From positions 3,040,001-3,104,000 of the forward strand of contig OY760183.1 in assembly GCA_963663275.1 (NCBI GenBank): a DNA stretch of 64,000 nt, given 5' to 3'. Within the stretch, counting starts at the first letter, position 1. Every line of letters begins with the position of its first letter. The position numbers were made by a program, and so were the translations under genes. The stretch is from Chloroflexota bacterium (lineage in GTDB: Bacteria > Chloroflexota > UBA11872 > VXOZ01). This document shows positions 49,909 to 58,580 of the stretch, in pieces. The notes beneath the pieces are model-generated. The model ran no database searches, was not told the DNA's origin, and was given only the letters and a program-made list of their open reading frames with translations.

Positions 49909-51297
49909 ATGATACGGCTAACCGACGCGCAGATGCGCGACTTCATTCGCAACGGGTTTGTCGCGATTAAGACCGGGCTTTCCCGCGAAGAGAATCAAGA
50001 CATCTGGAACCAGACGGAGGCTCTCTTCGAAGAGGACGGCAACCCCGGCAACAACCTGATGGCCAGAATCCCCGCCATTCGGCAGGTACTCGACGATCCG
50101 AAAGTGGACGGCGCATTGTCCGGCGTGCTGGGCAACAACTACTTCATTCACCCGCACCGCCACTGCCATTACCGGCCGCCCCACAGCGAGGGTCAGCAAA
50201 TCCACCGGGACTCCTTCACCCGGCGACGCCACCGCACCCGCTGGCTGCTGGCCATGTACTACCCGCAGGATACCACCGTCGAAATGGGCCCGACCGGCGT
50301 GCTGCCGGGCACGCACTACTTCAACTGGCTGGTAGGCCCGATCGGCCTCAACATGCGCCTGGACACCACCGAGGGCGAGGTGCCGGTGGTGGTGGAAGCC
50401 GGGACCATCCTGATGGTCCACTACGACCTCTGGCACCGGGGCATGGGCAACACCACGGACAAGAAACGTTACATGATGAAGTTCATGTTCGCCCGCATGG
50501 AAGAGCCGCGGGAGCCGAGTTGGGACAGCAGCGACAGCGAGTGGATTGCCGAGGACGATAGCGGCCTGAACGGCGTGTGGAGCCATATGTGGCGCTGGTA
50601 CACCGGCGCGGCCAACAACGGCGCGTCGTCCGCCAATGGCAACGGCGCCGGCTCGATACCGGAACTGATTGCGAACCTCAAGGTTGACGACGAAGCCACC
50701 TGCCTGGCGTCCGCCTACCAGCTTGGCTCAATGGGCGAGGCCGCCGTGCCCGCGTTGATCGATACGCTCCAGCACGAAAATGAAGCCGTGCGCCGCAACG
50801 CCAGTTACGCTCTGAGCGACATCGGCGCCGCGGCCGTGCCCGCCCTGCTGGACGCCAGCCGGGACGACAACGTGGATACGCGCATCATGGCGGTAGAGAC
50901 GTTGGCCGACCTGGGCTTTCTCGGCGATGAGGTCATGCCGTATCTCCGCGTGGCGCTGGAGGATGAATCAATTGAGGTGCGCCGCCATACGGTGGACGCG
51001 CTGGGCATCTGCATGCAGCATTCCGACAACGGCGTGCCGGCCCTGGCCGAAGCCCTCGGCGATGAGGACGAATTCATGCGCCGGGGCGCGGCGCTTGCCC
51101 TCTGCCGCATCGGCGCGCAGGCGGAAGAAGCGACGCCCGCCCTCGCCCAGGCCCTCAACGATGAAAATCGCTACGTGCGCGGCAAGGCCGTCCACGCCCT
51201 GCGCCGCATCGGCACACCCGAGGCCCAGGACGCCCTGGTGCACTTCCTGCTAACCTCCCAATGGTGCTACTCCACCACCAAGGATAGCCTGTACTAG
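49909..51297 (+). CDS. PhyH-like Fe(II)/2OG dioxygenase fused to HEAT repeats
   Basis: IHRDS, MGPTGVLPGTH, LWHRG; C-terminal AVPAL..L.DE..VR repeats. Confidence 0.88.
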   Translation: MIRLTDAQMRDFIRNGFVAIKTGLSREENQDIWNQTEALFEEDGNPGNNLMARIPAIRQVLDDPKVDGALSGVLGNNYFIHPHRHCHYRPPHSEGQQIHRDSFTRRRHRTRWLLAMYYPQDTTVEMGPTGVLPGTHYFNWLVGPIGLNMRLDTTEGEVPVVVEAGTILMVHYDLWHRGMGNTTDKKRYMMKFMFARMEEPREPSWDSSDSEWIAEDDSGLNGVWSHMWRWYTGAANNGASSANGNGAGSIPELIANLKVDDEATCLASAYQLGSMGEAAVPALIDTLQHENEAVRRNASYALSDIGAAAVPALLDASRDDNVDTRIMAVETLADLGFLGDEVMPYLRVALEDESIEVRRHTVDALGICMQHSDNGVPALAEALGDEDEFMRRGAALALCRIGAQAEEATPALAQALNDENRYVRGKAVHALRRIGTPEAQDALVHFLLTSQWCYSTTKDSLY

Positions 51298-51412
51298 TAT
51301 CTAGGCACGTATCTATTTGTAGACGGGATATCCGGTAGCGCAGGTTTGTAACCTGCGCCCATGGGTGGACAACCAGTATCACACAGATGGCGGTCATTGC
51401 CGACAGGAGGGC

Positions 51413-52576
51413 ATGATGGCGCAATACCACGACGCAGAATCAGGCATCAGCTTGGACAACGAGTTCGAGTGCGCCAGTGCGCGGGCGTTCAGCAAGCTCG
51501 GCCCCGGGCATTACCAGGTCGAGTTGCTCATCGAAAACTACAGCCCGGACTACCCGGTCGTCTGGGAGTACATGTTCTGCTTCCGGGTGCGGTCGCAGTC
51601 AGACCAAGCGCAAACGGTGACGTTTCGCGTCATGCAGGGGCGCGGCGGCATCAGCTACTTGGACGGGCCGCACTTCACAAAGCGCAATGGCAAGTGGGAC
51701 CTGGTGCCCCGCTGCCAGACGGAAATGAGCAAAGACTACGTCGAAGTCACGCTCGACGTGGCAGCAGGCGACGAGTTTCTGCTCGGCAACCATCCGTTCC
51801 CTACTCCTGCAGAGGTGGAGTCCGCGATGCACGCCACCGCGGCAGCGTTGGACGACTTTTCTGTGCGCGAATACGGACGCACACCGGAGGATCGTCCGCT
51901 TCTGGCGCTGGAGAGCCAGCCCCGCGACAAGACCGTTATCGTCTTCACCACCATGCAACCGGCCGAGCCGGGCGACGTGCCTATCCTATTCCTGGCTCAT
52001 TGGCTCAGCAGCCGATCGGCAGAGGCGGAGAGACTACTGGCAGAGTACCAGTTCTGCCTCATGCCAATGACGAACCCGGATGGGGCCGTACACGGTCATT
52101 CGGTAACCAACGCCGCCGGCGAGGTGCCGCGCTGCCACTTCGAGGACGCCAAATTGGGTAAGGACGTTCCCGCCGAGGCCGCCGTCATTTGGAAATACGT
52201 GGCGGAAAAGAAACCCACCATGTTCATCGAATTTCACATTCATTACCTCGTACACGCCCCGCACAAGCTAGTTGGCGTCCACGTAAACGAGCCCTCGGAT
52301 GAACGGGGTGTCGTTGCCCTGCCTGCGGCTACGGTCCTCTGGGGCGAAATGCTCAAACTCAACAGCCACTGGCGGGCGCGTCTCATCGAGGCCGAGAGCG
52401 AGACGTTCCGCAATGCCTTGGACGGAACGCTGGCGCGGGACTTCGGCACTCTTGCTTATGTCTATCAAATCTACGCTCCCACCGTGGAGGCCGCCTGCGC
52501 TCATGCCGTGGACGTGGTGCGCGCGACGGTGAACGGAGCGCAAGCAGCCGCCGCGCTCAATCTTCGCAACGCCTGA
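51413..52576 (+). CDS. M14 zinc carboxypeptidase-like protein
   Basis: YGRTPEDRPL, PMTNPDG, FIEFHIH; first Zn motif altered to MQPAE. Confidence 0.75.
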   Translation: MMAQYHDAESGISLDNEFECASARAFSKLGPGHYQVELLIENYSPDYPVVWEYMFCFRVRSQSDQAQTVTFRVMQGRGGISYLDGPHFTKRNGKWDLVPRCQTEMSKDYVEVTLDVAAGDEFLLGNHPFPTPAEVESAMHATAAALDDFSVREYGRTPEDRPLLALESQPRDKTVIVFTTMQPAEPGDVPILFLAHWLSSRSAEAERLLAEYQFCLMPMTNPDGAVHGHSVTNAAGEVPRCHFEDAKLGKDVPAEAAVIWKYVAEKKPTMFIEFHIHYLVHAPHKLVGVHVNEPSDERGVVALPAATVLWGEMLKLNSHWRARLIEAESETFRNALDGTLARDFGTLAYVYQIYAPTVEAACAHAVDVVRATVNGAQAAAALNLRNA

Positions 52577-52833
52577 ACCCGTGTTGTGACAATTCTGGCA
52601 TTAAGGGTGAGTTTTTTGCCTTTAAGTATAGACAGGCATGTCTCCCTGATGTAGCCTACAAGCAAGCGGTGATAGGAACGGCAGAGAGCGGGGAACGCGG
52701 GGCAACACCGCATCCTGCCCTGCAAACGGAGTGTGCAGGCAAGATCCAGAAGGAGGTGCAGAAGACAACAGCATCGTTCCGTATTCCCCATTCCCGGTTA
52801 CAGCAGTGATACGACAGAGAAAGGACGAAGAGA

Positions 52834-54270
52834 ATGGTAATTCGCAATCGTCATCTCACCCGTAGGAGTGTCCTTGCCGGTCTTGCCGGGTCGCTGAGCA
52901 TCGTAGCGGCTGCCGCGTGCGCACAGGGAGTCGCGACAGAGATGCCGGCGGAAGAAGAGAAGCCTGCCGAGGAGCCCAAGCAGGCCGAAGAAGCGCCCGC
53001 GATGGAGATGGTAACGGTGCGCGCCGGTTGGATTTCCAACGATGCCGCGGTGATCGAGCCATTCTACGGCGATCTGCTCGTCGCCAGCTTCGAAGAGGCT
53101 CATCCGAACATCAAGGTGGAGTGGGAAGGCGCGCCGGCCAGAGAACACCATGCCAAACTCGCGACCCAGTTGGCGGCCAACGAAGCGCCGGACGTGTTCC
53201 ATAGCGACGGCGTCCGCTATGCGCTCTTCCGCGATTCCGGTTACATCAACGACCTCGCGCCCTTCTTGAAGCGGGACGCCGGTACGCTGCAAGGCGTAAT
53301 CGGCCCGGAATTCTTCCGCGATCCCGACGGCAGCACGTGGGGTATTTCCAGCAGCATCGGCGGCGTCGCCACGGCCTTCAACACGGCGCACTTCGATAAA
53401 TTTGGTGTCAACCGGCTGCCGGAGAACGGCATAAACTGGAATCCCACCGACGGCGGGGAGTTCCTGGAAATAGCCCAAGAACTCACCCAGCGCGGCAGCA
53501 CCGAGGCGGACCCGGTGTGGGGCTTCTTCAACAACAAGCAGATTACGGGCGACGTGCTGAGCCTGCTGGTGCAAAACGGCACGAATTTCCTCACTGACGA
53601 CTACCGCCGTTCGCGCATCCACGAGCCGGAATTCATGGAAGTGGTGGAATTTCTGCACAACCTGGAGTTCAAGTGGCAAGTATCGCCCAACCCCGACCAA
53701 GTAGCGCTGTTGCGCGAGGCCATACCTGAAGGGCAGACCTACCACGCGCCGTTTGCATTTCAGCGGACGGCGATGATGAACCTGCTCATGGGCCAGTCCG
53801 GCCGCTGGGGCGGCCCTGATCCGGAAAGCTTGCCAATTGTGGCCGTGAAGTTCCTGAACGGGCCCCAGAACGACAAGGTGCCAAGCGGGGGGCGCGTCAT
53901 GGAGCATTGGGGCAGTTCACAACAGCCCGATGAAGCCTGGGACCTCATGCGCTTCTTCCTGACCGATCACGAGGTGAATATCGCGACCTTTACTATTCTG
54001 AAGTCCGGTTTGCCGCCCAACACGAACTTCTGGGATGACGAACGCCTCTACGTGAAGGCCGGCCGCCCGCCACGCGAGATCGAGGCCTATATGGCCACGC
54101 TGCGCGAGGGCAAGGGTTACTACTGGCAGGTGAACGGCGTCTGGAGCGCCTGGATTGGGGCATACCGCTCCGGCCAGGCTGCGATATGGGCCGGCGAAGC
54201 CAAGGTAGAGGAGGCCATGCAGCAAGCCAGCAAGGAGGCCCAAGCGGCCTTAGACGAGTATTACGGGTAA
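52834..54270 (+). CDS. ABC extracellular solute-binding lipoprotein (family 1), Tat signal
   Basis: LTRRSVL twin-arginine motif, AAAC lipobox, APDVF. Confidence 0.88.
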   Translation: MVIRNRHLTRRSVLAGLAGSLSIVAAAACAQGVATEMPAEEEKPAEEPKQAEEAPAMEMVTVRAGWISNDAAVIEPFYGDLLVASFEEAHPNIKVEWEGAPAREHHAKLATQLAANEAPDVFHSDGVRYALFRDSGYINDLAPFLKRDAGTLQGVIGPEFFRDPDGSTWGISSSIGGVATAFNTAHFDKFGVNRLPENGINWNPTDGGEFLEIAQELTQRGSTEADPVWGFFNNKQITGDVLSLLVQNGTNFLTDDYRRSRIHEPEFMEVVEFLHNLEFKWQVSPNPDQVALLREAIPEGQTYHAPFAFQRTAMMNLLMGQSGRWGGPDPESLPIVAVKFLNGPQNDKVPSGGRVMEHWGSSQQPDEAWDLMRFFLTDHEVNIATFTILKSGLPPNTNFWDDERLYVKAGRPPREIEAYMATLREGKGYYWQVNGVWSAWIGAYRSGQAAIWAGEAKVEEAMQQASKEAQAALDEYYG

Positions 54271-54320
54271 GGAGAATACGGTTCCGTCGCACCCATCTAA
54301 GCATAGAGACACGCGACTCC

Positions 54321-54357
54321 ATACACGCCGCTTCTCGCTATGAGAAGCGGCGTGTAT
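54321..54357. terminator. Strong hairpin between convergent genes
   Basis: 16-bp perfect stem ATACACGCCGCTTCTC / GAGAAGCGGCGTGTAT. Confidence 0.7.
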
Positions 54358-54431
54358 CTCTCTCCGGTCTCAGGGATCCTCATTTCAATGGAACCCAAAG
54401 ATACCCTGTCTTCGCTGCGCTGCAACGCAGG

Positions 54432-55838
54432 CTACGGTACTGCCGCCTGGGCCGCGGCCCCTGCCGCCAAGCGTACGTCCGCCCGGAAGAACAGCGCACC
54501 TGCTTGCCTCTGTTGCTCAGAGAGTTGGCCGCGCGGATCGCAGACCACTACCACGCTCTCCTTGCCCTCCGGTATGCGGAAGGGAACTTCGCAATCCGAC
54601 TCTTCCCGCCCAACAACCAAAGGCACGAGCGCGTGGCCGAGTTGCACGCCGCCGCCTTCATCGAGCGGCCCATCGAAGACCATCACCGCCGCCTCGCGCG
54701 CGTCGATTACGCCTCTATTCGCCAAAGTGACTCGCACACGACCGATCTCTCGCTCTAATGCGGAAACCTCAACGGCGGCAATTTCGAGCTCGCACTCCAC
54801 GCGGTCAACCGCCACGGCGGCGCGCGCGTCGATGAGGCCGTGTCCAAGAAACGGATTCCAGCCGGAACCGGCGGGCTGGTACGCCGTGTTGCGCATCACC
54901 ATCCGCACCTCGTCCGCGGTCAGGCCCGGCTGCCGCGACCACACCAAGGCCGCAAGAGCCGACACGTGCGGAATCGCCATGCAGCCGCCGGACCACTCCA
55001 CGTAGCCGCCGTGCGCGCCGGAAATCGTGCTCAGTGTCCCGTAGGGCGCCTGCGGATGCGCGCCCAGCGCCGCCGCCATCACGCCCTCCTCCGCCAGCGG
55101 CAGGATGCGCCGCCCGGGGTCGTTTTCCAGGTCGTAGGCGCGCCAGCCGGACGGTGCCGCCACCTCGGTCAGGTCGCCGTAGTCGCTGAAGTCCGCCATG
55201 CGGCCGCTATTGTCGGCGGAGGCCACGTTCACCACGCCCGGACAAAGCGCCGGGTACTTGGCCACGTTGTGCGCCTGGTTGCCGCCGGTGGCGTTCACGA
55301 TCAGCACGTTGTGCCGCTGCGCATACAGGCACGCCTCCAGCAGATCCTCGGCGTGCGGCGGCGTCCAGGCGCTGAAGATCGTCGGCAGGCCGTGCTTGAC
55401 GGTGTACATGTAGCCCACGTCGCTCAGGTTGATCACCCGCGCGCCGTTGTCCACCGCAAACCGGATGCCCCGCGCAATCTCCGCATCATCGTACGTATTT
55501 ACCCGCACCGGCAGGATGCGGCACTCCGGCGCGACCCCGGCGATGCCGACGCCGTTATCGGCGCGCGCGGCGATGATGCCGCTGACGTGCGTGCCGTGGT
55601 CGGTAGAATCCTTGTGCTTGCGGGGCCGCGAGGTGTCGTCCAGGCTGTCGTCATCGTCCCACAGGTCCCAACCCGGCAGGAACTGTCCCGCCAGGTCCGG
55701 ATGCCCCACGTCTATGCCCTTCTCGATGACCGCCACCACCACGTCCGGGCTGCCGCGCGTCACCTCCCACGCCGAAGGTGCATTGATGAGTTGCAGCCCC
55801 CACTGGTGGCGAAAGAGCGGATCGTTCAGAGGTACCAT
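54432..55838 (-). CDS. S8 subtilase homolog with a non-canonical triad and a C-terminal Ig/CARDB-like domain
   Basis: NDPLFRHQWGL, VAVIEKGID, HGTHVSGII, GARVINLS, SGGCMAIPHVSALAAL, GHGLIDA. Confidence 0.88.
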   Translation of the reverse strand: MVPLNDPLFRHQWGLQLINAPSAWEVTRGSPDVVVAVIEKGIDVGHPDLAGQFLPGWDLWDDDDSLDDTSRPRKHKDSTDHGTHVSGIIAARADNGVGIAGVAPECRILPVRVNTYDDAEIARGIRFAVDNGARVINLSDVGYMYTVKHGLPTIFSAWTPPHAEDLLEACLYAQRHNVLIVNATGGNQAHNVAKYPALCPGVVNVASADNSGRMADFSDYGDLTEVAAPSGWRAYDLENDPGRRILPLAEEGVMAAALGAHPQAPYGTLSTISGAHGGYVEWSGGCMAIPHVSALAALVWSRQPGLTADEVRMVMRNTAYQPAGSGWNPFLGHGLIDARAAVAVDRVECELEIAAVEVSALEREIGRVRVTLANRGVIDAREAAVMVFDGPLDEGGGVQLGHALVPLVVGREESDCEVPFRIPEGKESVVVVCDPRGQLSEQQRQAGALFFRADVRLAAGAAAQAAVP

Positions 55839-56164
55839 CGTCTCGTTCCTCCCGGCTCCAGGCTCCGCCCGCTTTGCGGGGCGTGCCTCTCCGCCTGTGC
55901 GATACGTATTGCATTCACTATGTAACGCCAACGGCACGATGTCAATTGATGCAAAGGGCCGCTCACTCGGTTGACTTGACTACTAAGCCTCGCATAGTAC
56001 ACTATCAGCAGAGAGGATTGCAGTATTGCAGAATGCCTCGGATTCTCGTATGAAAGGAGGTTGAGGCGCATACAACGGCAATTCTGCGTTAGTGTGGCTG
56101 GCGTACGTCTCTCACTGTACGCTTGGCCGCAAAACCAGACACATTCATCCAGTAGGGGGAAGAG

Positions 56165-57592
56165 ATGACGATTACTCGACGACGCATGTTGGCTGGTACC
56201 GGCGGGGTGCTGGGCGCAATCGCGCTGGCGGCCTGCGGCACAGCCATGCCGGCGGGCGACGGTGACGCGCCGGAGAAGATGGAAGAAGCGCCCAAGGCCG
56301 AAGAACAGAAGCCAATGGAGAAGGTCACCGTATCGGTACGGTGGATTTCCAACGACCTCACCCTGGTCGAGCCGTTCTACGAGAATCTCGTTGTGGCGCG
56401 ATTCTACGAGAACTACGACAACATCGAGCTTGATTGGGTGGGCGACACGTACCGCGACACCATGAGCCAGCTCAATACGCAGTTGGCCGCCGGTGACGCG
56501 CCGGACGTATTCCACAACGACGGCGTGTTCTTTGCACGCAACCGCGATGTTGGCTACATTCGCTCGCTGACCGAGTACACCAAGCGCGATGGCGCACAAC
56601 TCGAGGGCATTCGCGGTCCGGAGTTCTTCAGTGATGAGAAGCAGGACGTGTATGGCGTCTCCATGGGTGTTGGTTGCGCGGCCTTAGCCTACAACACCGA
56701 CATCTTCGACCGCTACGGCATCAACCGCTTGCCGCCTGAAGGCATTGATTGGAATCCGGGCGACGGCGGCACGTTGCTGGAAATTGCCTCCGACATAACT
56801 GCCAAGGGTCAGAACGAAGATCCCAGGATCTGGGGATGGTTCAATAACAAGCAGGCCACTTTCGACATTCTTGGCATGCTGCTTCAAAACGGCACAAACT
56901 TCCTTTCCGATGACTATCGCCGTTCGAGAGCGCACGAGGCAGAGTTCATTGACGTTATCCAGTTCCTGTGGGACTTGGAGTTCAAACATCGGGTCGCGCC
57001 AGATCCCGATGAACGCGCTGAGTTCAACGCTTCGATTCCTGAGGGCACGACGTATCATGGCCCGTTCGCCTGGCAGCGGTCAGCCATGATGAACCTCGGC
57101 CTTGGCCAGTCCGGTTCCTGGGGTTCGCCTGAACCGGAAAAACTGCCGATCGAAGCGGTACAGTACATCCAGGGCCCGGCAAATAACAAGGTGCCCGGTG
57201 GCGGACGCGTAGTCGAGATGTGGGGCAGCACCGAGGTGCCCGACGAGGCCTGGGAAGTGATGAAGTTCCCCTTGGTCGACCATGAGATTCAGGTGGGGGT
57301 CTTCTCGATCCTGCGCGACGGCTTGCCGGCCAACACCAACACGTGGGACGATCCGCGACTGCTTGAGAAGAGTGGTCGACCGCCGCGTGAGGTGGAAGCG
57401 TACATGGCCCCGCTTAGGGAAGGTCGTGGCCAGTATTGGCAAGTTAATGGCGTGTGGCTGGAATGGTGGCGCGCATTCCGTGGCAACATGAACCGCGCTT
57501 GGGCACTAGAGGTCACCGTCGAGGAAGCCATGCAGCAAGCAAGCAAAGAGTCGCAGGCTGTCCTGGACGAGTACTACGCCAGCCAGGACTAG
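56165..57592 (+). CDS. ABC extracellular solute-binding lipoprotein (family 1), Tat signal; paralog of 52834-54270
   Basis: ITRRRML, LAAC; long shared blocks WISND, LQNGTNFL.DDYRRSR and WQVNGVW. Confidence 0.88.
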   Translation: MTITRRRMLAGTGGVLGAIALAACGTAMPAGDGDAPEKMEEAPKAEEQKPMEKVTVSVRWISNDLTLVEPFYENLVVARFYENYDNIELDWVGDTYRDTMSQLNTQLAAGDAPDVFHNDGVFFARNRDVGYIRSLTEYTKRDGAQLEGIRGPEFFSDEKQDVYGVSMGVGCAALAYNTDIFDRYGINRLPPEGIDWNPGDGGTLLEIASDITAKGQNEDPRIWGWFNNKQATFDILGMLLQNGTNFLSDDYRRSRAHEAEFIDVIQFLWDLEFKHRVAPDPDERAEFNASIPEGTTYHGPFAWQRSAMMNLGLGQSGSWGSPEPEKLPIEAVQYIQGPANNKVPGGGRVVEMWGSTEVPDEAWEVMKFPLVDHEIQVGVFSILRDGLPANTNTWDDPRLLEKSGRPPREVEAYMAPLREGRGQYWQVNGVWLEWWRAFRGNMNRAWALEVTVEEAMQQASKESQAVLDEYYASQD

Positions 57593-57613
57593 GCTTCTGT
57601 CACTTTGGCGTCA

Positions 57614-57645
57614 AAACGAGGAGGGTCTGCCGGCCCTCCTCGTTT
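57614..57645 (+). terminator. Intrinsic terminator-like hairpin
   Basis: AAACGAGGAGGG / CCCTCCTCGTTT. Confidence 0.65.
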
Positions 57646-57866
57646 CCCGTTGTACTCCTGCCAGGCTTTCATCCACACGTCATTCCGAGCGCAGGGAGGA
57701 ATCCAGGGCGATGGAGCAAGACTCCCTTGCGCATCGCTCCACAGCTTGGCGGCTTGTGCAACGCCGCCTGCGCGCAACATGCCGCAGACGAGCGGCCGCT
57801 GCCGGTGTACACTTAAGCAATGACCGGTCGGAAGTGTCCGCGCTGCGTTAGGAGGTTAGCAGCACC

Positions 57867-58580
57867 GTGACGCCTCTCCTTACCGCACTCATCGCGTTCG
57901 GTGCCGGCATCGCCTCGTTTCTCTCGCCGTGCGTGTTGCCGCTGGTGCCGGCCTACATCGGCCACCTGGCCGGCACGAGTGTGTCGGAAGAGCAAGACGC
58001 CCAGGCAACCATGCGTACGGTCGCCCACGCCGCGTTCTTCGTGCTGGGCTTCTCGGCCGTCTTTGTGCTGCTATGGGCGTCAATCGGCCTTTTGGGCTAT
58101 GCCATTCAGGGATATACCTACTACCTGCGCTACGCCGGCGGGGCGATTCTCGTCGTCTTGGGTCTGCACGTTGCCGGAATATTTCGCCTGCGTTGGCTCA
58201 ATCAGGAGCGGCGCGTCTACGTTGACCGCGGCCGCCCCCGGAACTTTCTCACCTCATGGCTCGTGGGCATAACTTTCGCCGCCGGGTGGACGCCCTGTGT
58301 CGGCCCGATTCTCGCCGGCATCATCGCCCTTGCCTCAACGCGCGACACGGTCGGCCAGGGCTCGCTGCTCCTGGCCCTCTACTCCGCCGGTCTCGGCATC
58401 CCGTTCCTGCTGACGGCCATCGGCCTCTCGCGCGCCGTCCCCATTCTGCGCTGGATGAACCGCCACGCCCACACGGTCGAGGTGGCCAGCGGCGGCCTGC
58501 TCATCGTCATCGGCGTCATGATGTTCATGAACACCTTCGCCCAACTCGCCCGCTACTTCACCTGGATACCGGTGTTCTAG
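57867..58580 (+). CDS. ccdA: Cytochrome c biogenesis protein CcdA
   Basis: SFLSPCVLPLVPAY and GWTPCVGPIL. Confidence 0.93.
   Translation: MTPLLTALIAFGAGIASFLSPCVLPLVPAYIGHLAGTSVSEEQDAQATMRTVAHAAFFVLGFSAVFVLLWASIGLLGYAIQGYTYYLRYAGGAILVVLGLHVAGIFRLRWLNQERRVYVDRGRPRNFLTSWLVGITFAAGWTPCVGPILAGIIALASTRDTVGQGSLLLALYSAGLGIPFLLTAIGLSRAVPILRWMNRHAHTVEVASGGLLIVIGVMMFMNTFAQLARYFTWIPVF

Follow-up and report, generated by a model that had tools for sequence, protein, structure and literature searches.

The minus-strand gene at positions 54432-55838 of a 64,000-nucleotide stretch of a Chloroflexota bacterium genome (assembly GCA_963663275.1, contig OY760183.1, positions 3,040,001 to 3,104,000; the whole stretch is called the window here) encodes a 468-residue protein, followed by its stop codon, in which glutamate, histidine and cysteine occupy the catalytic positions of a subtilase. 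The product probably functions in the cytoplasm as a subtilisin-fold enzyme with a thiol, not a hydroxyl, as its nucleophile, i.e. a peptidase or amidase working through a thiol acyl-enzyme. This form is called type 1, and all residue and codon numbers refer to its window member, P0001.

The catalytic assignment rests on codon reading and on alignment with thermitase. In a phmmer alignment of P0001 with thermitase (Protein Data Bank entry 1tec; E 2.7e-34), viEkg pairs with ivDtg, dhgthv with ghgthc, atggN with aaagN and sgGCmaiphv with sgTSmatphv; therefore, Glu39 and Cys286 lie exactly on the catalytic Asp and Ser columns. An original prediction, made from the letters of the window alone, had singled out the same four motifs, and each of them holds. 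The acid is Glu39 in VAVIEKG (GAG, 55722-55724, this and all following codons on the minus strand), the catalytic histidine is His81 in the intact HGTHV part of DHGTHV (CAC, 55596-55598), and the oxyanion-hole residue is Asn187 in ATGGN (AAC, 55278-55280), which aligns with the Asn of thermitase AAAGN and is kept in all Glu-His-Cys relatives. The counterparts of these three in subtilisin are D32, H64 and N155. The nucleophile column holds Cys286 in SGGCMAIPHV (TGC, 54981-54983), invariant in the alignment of close homologues. The residue before it is Gly in P0001 and in all of that alignment, compared with Thr in thermitase (Thr220 of subtilisin), and Pro290 (CCG, 54969-54971), four residues past the nucleophile, falls on the position of subtilisin Pro225. 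A second cysteine, Cys106 in APECRIL (55521-55523), is invariant in both of the cysteine-subtilase subfamilies described below.

The Pfam profile Peptidase_S8 (PF00082) matches the catalytic domain, residues 32-334 (54837-55745, minus strand), with an E-value of 5.7e-44 and a score of 151 bits against a cut-off of 21.8. With this match, the subtilisin fold, the catalytic His and the oxyanion Asn, P0001 reads clearly as a homologue of the S8 family. Because the two residues that define S8 catalysis were looked for and found replaced, with Glu39 (VIEKG) where D-[TS]-G carries Asp and Cys286 (GGCMAIP) where G-T-S-M-A-x-P carries Ser, it would not be filed as a serine peptidase.

The catalytic columns were read in 264 proteins collected by a word-indexed search and by an exhaustive HMMER search that covered 1.84 billion cluster representatives. 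The word-indexed search returned 25 close relatives at 59-90% identity, followed by a steep fall to ordinary S8 proteins at 44% or below, and the HMMER search added representatives at 39-46%. The set Glu-His-Asn-Cys (E/H/N/C, in the order acid, histidine, oxyanion residue and nucleophile) is present in 27 of the 264 (P0002-P0024, P0122, P0123, P0124 and P0126; 39-90% identity), made up of every full-length close homologue (23) and of four more distant representatives, at 39-46%. D/H/N/C occurs in P0128 alone, and three fragments (P0025, P0026 and P0180) carry the Cys. P0263, on a long branch, reads E/H/E/G, with Glu on the oxyanion column and a Cys one position earlier (QGCGLAAAHV). The remaining proteins have Ser on the nucleophile column where they align, except for degenerate extra domains of the multidomain proteins P0130, P0147, P0181, P0184 and P0187. 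Glu occupies the acid column in 28 proteins, 27 of them with Cys at the nucleophile and P0263 with Gly, and the combination of Glu with Ser was not found among the 264.

Glu-His-Cys genes also lie at separate loci (L015 and L016) in two Phycisphaerae genomes, at 39% identity, in genome G398, and as a second, divergent paralogue (L108) in the Chloroflexota genome that holds locus L012. Among longer proteins (820-2340 residues), a search for fused type-1 forms gave 60 matches, none type-1-like, all 58 that aligned being D/H/S. Of 401 sampled Planctomycetota genomes, only the query genome itself carries type 1 (E 1e-50), so no additional Planctomycetota contexts were available.

Comparison of the window gene with 14 orthologous loci gave ratios of non-synonymous to synonymous substitution rates (dN/dS) of 0.09-0.19, at dS values of 0.66-1.64. 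The Glu39 codon is GAG or GAA, and the Cys286 codon TGC, in 15 of 15 orthologous genes. Contigs of an independent-looking sequencing run, which may be the source sample, cover both codons with no difference; further metagenome runs had small shares of matching words, and the contigs of three of these (X2, X3 and X8) are fragments of relatives, 85-99% alike. Sequencing error and private mutation are ruled out by the 27 homologues with E/H/N/C and by the 15 orthologues. The original prediction had allowed that the closest homologues might all keep Asp-His-Ser; they carry E/H/N/C, and the set is shared as far as Phycisphaerae and Chloroflexota paralogues rather than private. It had also favoured altered catalysis over decay, and this is the better reading because purifying selection is strong.

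The window's own genome (3.53 Mb, one contig) contains only two S8 genes, and the second encodes another cysteine subtilase. This 452-residue protein (P0266; G000:C1:1324643-1325998, or L048:8644-10002) carries Asp-His-Asn-Cys, with the motifs VAVIDLG, GHHAF, TADN and EGGCMASAF, and is called type 2; an M24/creatinase-N gene stands before its gene and a CE4-like deacetylase gene after it. At least 120 relatives or clusters share 47-87% identity with it, from sources that include Armatimonadetes, Verrucomicrobia, Isosphaeraceae and Anaerolineae, and the annotation of all 120 listed is 'S8 family serine peptidase' or hypothetical. Every one of these 120 has the Cys, and 117 have D/H/N/C, with GGCMA[SA]GF as the subfamily motif. 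Members are also found in one archaeon (Bathyarchaeota locus L017) and in an Armatimonadota locus (L018). The predicted structure of the type-2 protein has the subtilisin fold, with a mean predicted local distance difference test (pLDDT) score of 92.1.

In a careful maximum-likelihood tree of 50 rows, for which no root was inferred, type 1 is supported at 98/99 and type 2 at 100/100. A branch with 99/95 support places both types, P0128, P0263 and P0132 on one side, and 18 ordinary S8 proteins and four mycosin-like sequences on the other. All type-1 and type-2 rows (100%) have Cys106, compared with 13% of 87 other S8 rows, and Arg233, Asn317 and the C-terminal domain are also common to both subfamilies. 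From the topology of the fold, Cys106 presumably marks the beginning of strand 3, at a distance from the triad. P0001 has all the marks of this clade: the nucleophile Cys, the retained His and Asn, Cys106 and a CARDB-like C-terminal domain. These sequence data support type 1 as one branch of a larger, two-branch, multi-phylum clade of natural cysteine subtilases, which goes beyond what the original prediction had covered. The distribution of the types is patchy; of 401 Chloroflexota genomes sampled, the same 13 carry both, namely the window's genome, 11 of 11 further genomes of its genus and one from a different genus.

The AlphaFold2 model of P0001, built from an 82-row alignment, has a mean pLDDT of 92.9 and a predicted template modelling score of 0.93, with block means of 97-98 around Glu39, His81 and Cys286 and of 93 around Asn187. 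Glu39 is the last residue of strand 34-39, His81 the second residue of helix 80-90 and Cys286 lies at the N-terminus of helix 285-302, while Asn187 follows strand 179-183. In the model, these residues are positioned in the subtilisin manner. A Foldseek search with the model returned subtilases first, with a probability of 1.00 and target-normalised template modelling scores of 0.87-0.89 for thermitase. Compared with thermitase, P0001 lacks four residues after strand 3 (SGTW in thermitase) and has two large insertions, at approximately residues 140-165 and 233-278.

Beyond the catalytic domain lies a C-terminal β-sandwich domain, approximately residues 345-460 (54459-54806, minus strand), which is all-β in the model with strands spanning residues 351-456. 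It is CARDB-like: P0001 itself has no match to CARDB (PF07705) at E 0.01, and its 39%-identical Phycisphaerae homologue matches at E 3.6e-5. The nearest clusters in the ESM Atlas are generic S8 or S8 with CARDB only, CARDB being present on 15-86% of members. The domain is kept in both cysteine subfamilies, with N374, G376, D379 and D434 conserved.

The minus-strand frame is open from 54432 to 55937, in agreement with the intact reading frame originally reported, and the start at ATG 55838 is preferred for three reasons. Each full-length relative begins within a few residues of a common NDP motif, a GGAGG lies 9 nt 5' of this ATG, and a promoter-like site (TTGACA-17-CATAGT, sigma-70-like; 55917-55945, minus strand) falls inside the longer frame. 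The last is a consensus match only, in a region where four such sites were found against 0.3 expected. Translation from the GTG at 55937, which could hide a signal peptide or propeptide in a longer product, is ruled out by the homologue starts at the NDP motif and by the promoter-like site within the extension. The first residue of P0001 pairs with residue 4 of mature thermitase, so the protein has no signal peptide and no propeptide, as had been proposed; the N-termini of the relatives agree. The protein is presumably cytoplasmic, and the absence of both elements fits a reducing compartment.

A functional enzyme of this kind would work as follows. Glu39 would orient His81, which would take the proton from Cys286, and the Cys286 thiolate would attack the carbonyl of an amide or ester. 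The oxyanion would be stabilised by Asn187 together with a backbone NH at the start of helix 285-302, and the resulting thioester acyl-enzyme would be resolved by water, or possibly by an amine. As for the physiological role, our best guess is a thiol peptidase or amidase that acts in the cytoplasm on imported peptides, glycopeptides or related amides, hydrolysing small substrates of this kind beside M14- and M24-type metallopeptidases and the binding proteins of ATP-binding cassette (ABC) transporters.

The subtilase gene, alone on its strand, is flanked by two paralogous plus-strand genes, 56% identical, for solute-binding proteins of the Pfam family SBP_bac_1. Gene A (52834-54270) is convergent with the subtilase gene, an arrangement seen in 11 of 13 same-genus loci, and gene B (56165-57592) is divergent from it and kept in 13 of 13. 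No permease gene adjoins either of them. Judged by eye, the N-termini of the two binding proteins (RR...AAAC and RRR...LAAC) look like twin-arginine or lipoprotein signals. Between the convergent ends of gene A and the subtilase gene lies a 16-bp GC-rich perfect hairpin (54323-54357), a probable bidirectional terminator, with a centroid energy of -30.2 kcal/mol and a z-score of -6.3; 0 of 200 shuffled sequences fold as well. A terminator pattern scan missed this hairpin because it has no T run.

An M14-like gene of the zinc carboxypeptidase family (51365-52576, plus strand, start uncertain; PF00246, E 5.1e-7) precedes gene A and is present in 12 of 13 same-genus loci. Its product has no BLAST similarity to the M14-like proteins beside other type-1 copies, and is 27% identical to the product of the gene directly downstream of the type-2 subtilase in metagenome locus L078. 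In the window protein, the zinc motif, usually HxxE, seems by eye to read QPAE. Since the same-genus genomes are close kin, their shared layout is weak evidence for a functional link between the flanking genes and the subtilase. NCBIfam gave no family for the M14-like genes, the binding proteins or the CE4-like gene, and Rfam gave no RNA element in 52000-58000. A role in anti-phage defence was considered and rejected, the one PADLOC match, for type 1, being to a generic 'subtilase' (59.7 bits), with none for type 2. Further away, an open reading frame at 49909-51297 (plus strand) fuses a PhyH-type (phytanoyl-CoA dioxygenase family) domain to a C-terminal HEAT-repeat array, an unusual combination.

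Other type-1 copies have different surroundings. At L012 (61% identity), the gene is accompanied by M14-like, heparinase II/III-like, DegT aminotransferase, isochorismatase-like and major facilitator superfamily transporter genes, with GFO/IDH/MocA genes on both sides. The divergent paralogue at L121 in the same genome (G401) has ABC permeases, a binding protein, and M14-like, Amidohydro_2 and short-chain dehydrogenase/reductase genes upstream. This paralogue (L121:8675-10075) overlaps by 4 nt with a GH38N/GH57-like gene (L121:10072-10674), which is followed by a GH38C-like gene; the arrangement suggests that a split mannosidase-like enzyme is co-translated with the paralogue. Three type-1 contexts have an M14-like gene within 2-3.5 kb; for two type-1 paralogues the distance is 3-3.5 kb. 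The Phycisphaerae locus L015 has, on one strand, two proteins with the N-terminal methylation motif (N_methyl), a CBM_4_9 protein and a GHL6 glycosidase-like gene. In G398 (L122, G398:C1:1449500-1469400), type 1 has an M24/creatinase-N gene 63 nt upstream, and a type-2 gene lies 14 kb away, followed by a CN_hydrolase gene; the orthologue of this M24 gene in the window's genome, immediately upstream of type 2, is 54% identical to it. Between types 2 and 1 in L122 are genes for the CN_hydrolase, a xylose-isomerase-like TIM barrel, a 2-hydroxyacid dehydrogenase, a GFO/IDH/MocA protein, a binding protein, three ABC permeases and an isochorismatase-like protein, and the stretch may be one catabolic island.

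Type-2 neighbours were clustered in the 20 of 38 loci that are at least 4 kb long, two of the 20 being near-identical. GFO/IDH/MocA proteins occur in 10 of these loci, URO-D-like proteins in 9, and CE4-like deacetylases, DUF3604 or CehA-McbA-type metallohydrolases and DegT aminotransferases in 6 each. The theme common to both types is one of C-N bond hydrolases and uptake systems in sugar-rich loci.

The sequences recall a well-known piece of protein engineering. Thiol-subtilisin, in which the catalytic Ser is changed to Cys, was first made by chemists in the 1960s. According to the available part of PMC7921005, S221C subtilisin loses most of its activity, P225A or another small residue at 225 restores activity by easing the crowding around the larger sulphur, Gly or Ala at this position favour synthesis, and M222P marks the peptiligase lineage. 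Among 28 full-length E/H/N/C proteins of type 1, position 225 is Pro in 16, Gly in 8 and Ala in 4, the window protein being one with Pro. In type 2, where motifs cover 112 of the 120 sequences, it is Gly in 98, Ala in 9, Ser in 5 and Pro in none. The changes of the clade at 220 and 225 parallel the path from thiol-subtilisin to subtiligase; they are parallels in sequence, not proof of mechanism.

These parallels raise the alternative that the enzyme transfers acyl groups rather than hydrolysing them, by transpeptidation, ligation, cyclisation or N-acylation of an amine such as an amino sugar, in which case it would be a counterpart of subtiligase found in nature. In thiol-subtilisin, the thioester acyl-enzyme partitions in favour of amine nucleophiles, as stated in the same part of PMC7921005; the family shows relaxation at 225 as in the engineered enzymes, and P0122 has Pro directly after its Cys, as in the M222P lineage. 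DegT sugar aminotransferases and GFO/IDH/MocA proteins recur in the type-2 loci and both stand beside the type-1 gene of L012. In the Foldseek search with the type-2 model, crystal structures of peptiligase and omniligase rank 2-7. However, the E-values of these ligases and of ordinary subtilisin differ trivially (2.8e-18 versus 3.4e-18), and the ligase hits are helped by the sequence match around the Cys. No precursor peptide, ATP-grasp, non-ribosomal peptide synthetase or other donor-activating gene was seen beside any copy examined, and the most specific neighbours are hydrolases (M14, M24, CN_hydrolase, Amidohydro_2 and CE4-like). Acyl transfer as the physiological reaction is the chief rival reading, and we consider it unlikely.

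A non-catalytic pseudo-protease that binds a ligand or partner, in the manner of CspA and CspC, is less probable still. Such proteins exist in the subtilase family (PMC7200643, in its available part), the canonical Asp and Ser are both gone from P0001, and part of the classical substrate-binding segment is deleted. However, the four catalytic columns are fixed as a chemically competent E/H/N/C set across more than 60% sequence divergence, the sister subfamily keeps D/H/N/C nearly throughout, and the Glu codon varies only synonymously. Pseudoenzymes normally drift at their catalytic columns.

A secreted or type VII secretion-associated serine protease of the mycosin kind, altered by private mutations or sequencing errors, is scarcely credible: TIGR03921 is the best NCBIfam match (207.1 bits) and the motif GWNPxxGHG is shared with mycosin-like genes of Rhodococcus and Mycobacterium, but the score lies under the cut-off of 278.75, P0001 has no signal peptide or membrane anchor, no secretion (ESX) genes lie nearby in the window, the mycosin-like sequences fall across the 99/95 branch, and the E/H/C residues are conserved.

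A cytoplasmic thiol peptidase or amidase remains the preferred explanation, and several observations weigh against it. The segment deleted after strand 3 is one that builds a wall of the peptide-binding cleft, so substrate binding in P0001 probably differs from that of classical subtilases. The gene neighbourhoods of both types are heterogeneous, and the adjacency of GFO/IDH/MocA genes is a weaker functional clue than it first looks. These genes are extraordinarily numerous: G000 has 83 matches (3.5 Mb), G401 has 65 (3.0 Mb), G404 has 29 (1.9 Mb), G405 has 105 (6.1 Mb) and a fifth genome has 25; with 25-105 copies per genome, such adjacency is, by a rough estimate, just about twice that expected by chance. 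On the tree, P0132, which is D/H/N/S (SGQSAAAPH), nests inside the cysteine clade beside type 2. The nucleophile has therefore changed at least twice, by a gain and a reversal or by two gains, and Ser and Cys may be interchangeable within the clade; P0132 may be a reversal, and P0263 a degenerate member. Finally, because engineered Ser-to-Cys subtilisin is a poor amidase (PMC7921005 and PMC6642262, each in its available part), amide hydrolysis by P0001 would need compensations, which we infer.

No description of a natural subtilase with a Cys nucleophile was found in the full-text literature searched, most subscription journals and the MEROPS notes being outside its scope, so that a prior description is possible; what the search found covers chemically or genetically made thiol-subtilisin and its ligase descendants. 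As far as this literature goes, the cysteine subtilases are an undescribed clade and a new catalytic variant of the subtilisin fold, which has so far been treated as a serine-only scaffold, and a conserved natural clade breaks that picture. It would show that evolution has crossed the divide between Ser and Cys in clan SB, as in the chymotrypsin fold. Made by hand, the Ser-to-Cys change cripples amide hydrolysis, and P225A and later changes were needed to obtain useful peptide ligases. The clade contains, in its sequences, natural answers to the steric and electronic difficulties that a thiol poses in the subtilisin active site, and offers new starting points for peptide ligases. It also marks as wrongly described hundreds of database entries that carry the name 'S8 family serine peptidase'. 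A bolder and rather doubtful proposal is that types 1 and 2 are natural, widespread cytoplasmic enzymes that add a third catalytic class to the subtilisin fold, and that their thioesters serve amide-bond transfer, beyond mere hydrolysis, for example in joining or cyclising peptides or in N-acylating the amino sugars made by GFO/IDH/MocA and DegT neighbours. If acyl transfer is true, these would be nature's own subtiligases and ready-made scaffolds.

Among known systems, two share with the clade a changed catalytic set. The picornain 3C-type proteases, an analogy only, made a natural Ser-to-Cys switch in the chymotrypsin fold, several of them with Glu as the third residue (His-Glu-Cys); the switch resembles that of the clade, whereas the fold is unrelated (clan PA as opposed to SB) and the task is viral polyprotein processing. 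The sedolisins (S53), which are secreted and acid-active, are the other case known of a non-canonical set in the subtilisin fold; in them, Glu and Asp replace His and Asn and the nucleophile remains Ser. Closer to P0001 are the intracellular subtilisin proteases (2x8j, 2wv7 and 7xr8; E about 2e-19), which are cytoplasmic and have no classical prodomain, but keep Asp-His-Ser and lack the CARDB-like domain. The mycosins (TIGR03921), the best-scoring curated family, share GWNP..GHG with P0001, but are D/H/S, secreted and anchored, and belong to another clade of the tree.

With thermitase and subtilisin (S8, clan SB; 1tec/1thm, 1dbi and BPN'), P0001 shares the fold, the order and topology of the catalytic residues, the His and the oxyanion Asn. 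It differs from them in its Cys nucleophile, its Glu acid and the Gly that replaces Thr before the nucleophile, and in having no signal peptide or propeptide, a four-residue deletion, two insertions and an added CARDB-like domain. The engineered thiol-subtilisin, subtiligase (S221C/P225A), peptiligase and omniligase resemble the natural clade in placing a Cys in the subtilisin fold. The clade differs from them in being natural, ancient and diversified, and in its Thr220-to-Gly change and, in type 1, its Asp-to-Glu change, both of which are absent from the engineered lineage as far as the available part of PMC7921005 describes it. Position 225 is relaxed in the engineered ligases, as it is, with Gly, Ala or Ser, in most of the natural clade, whereas the window protein keeps its Pro.

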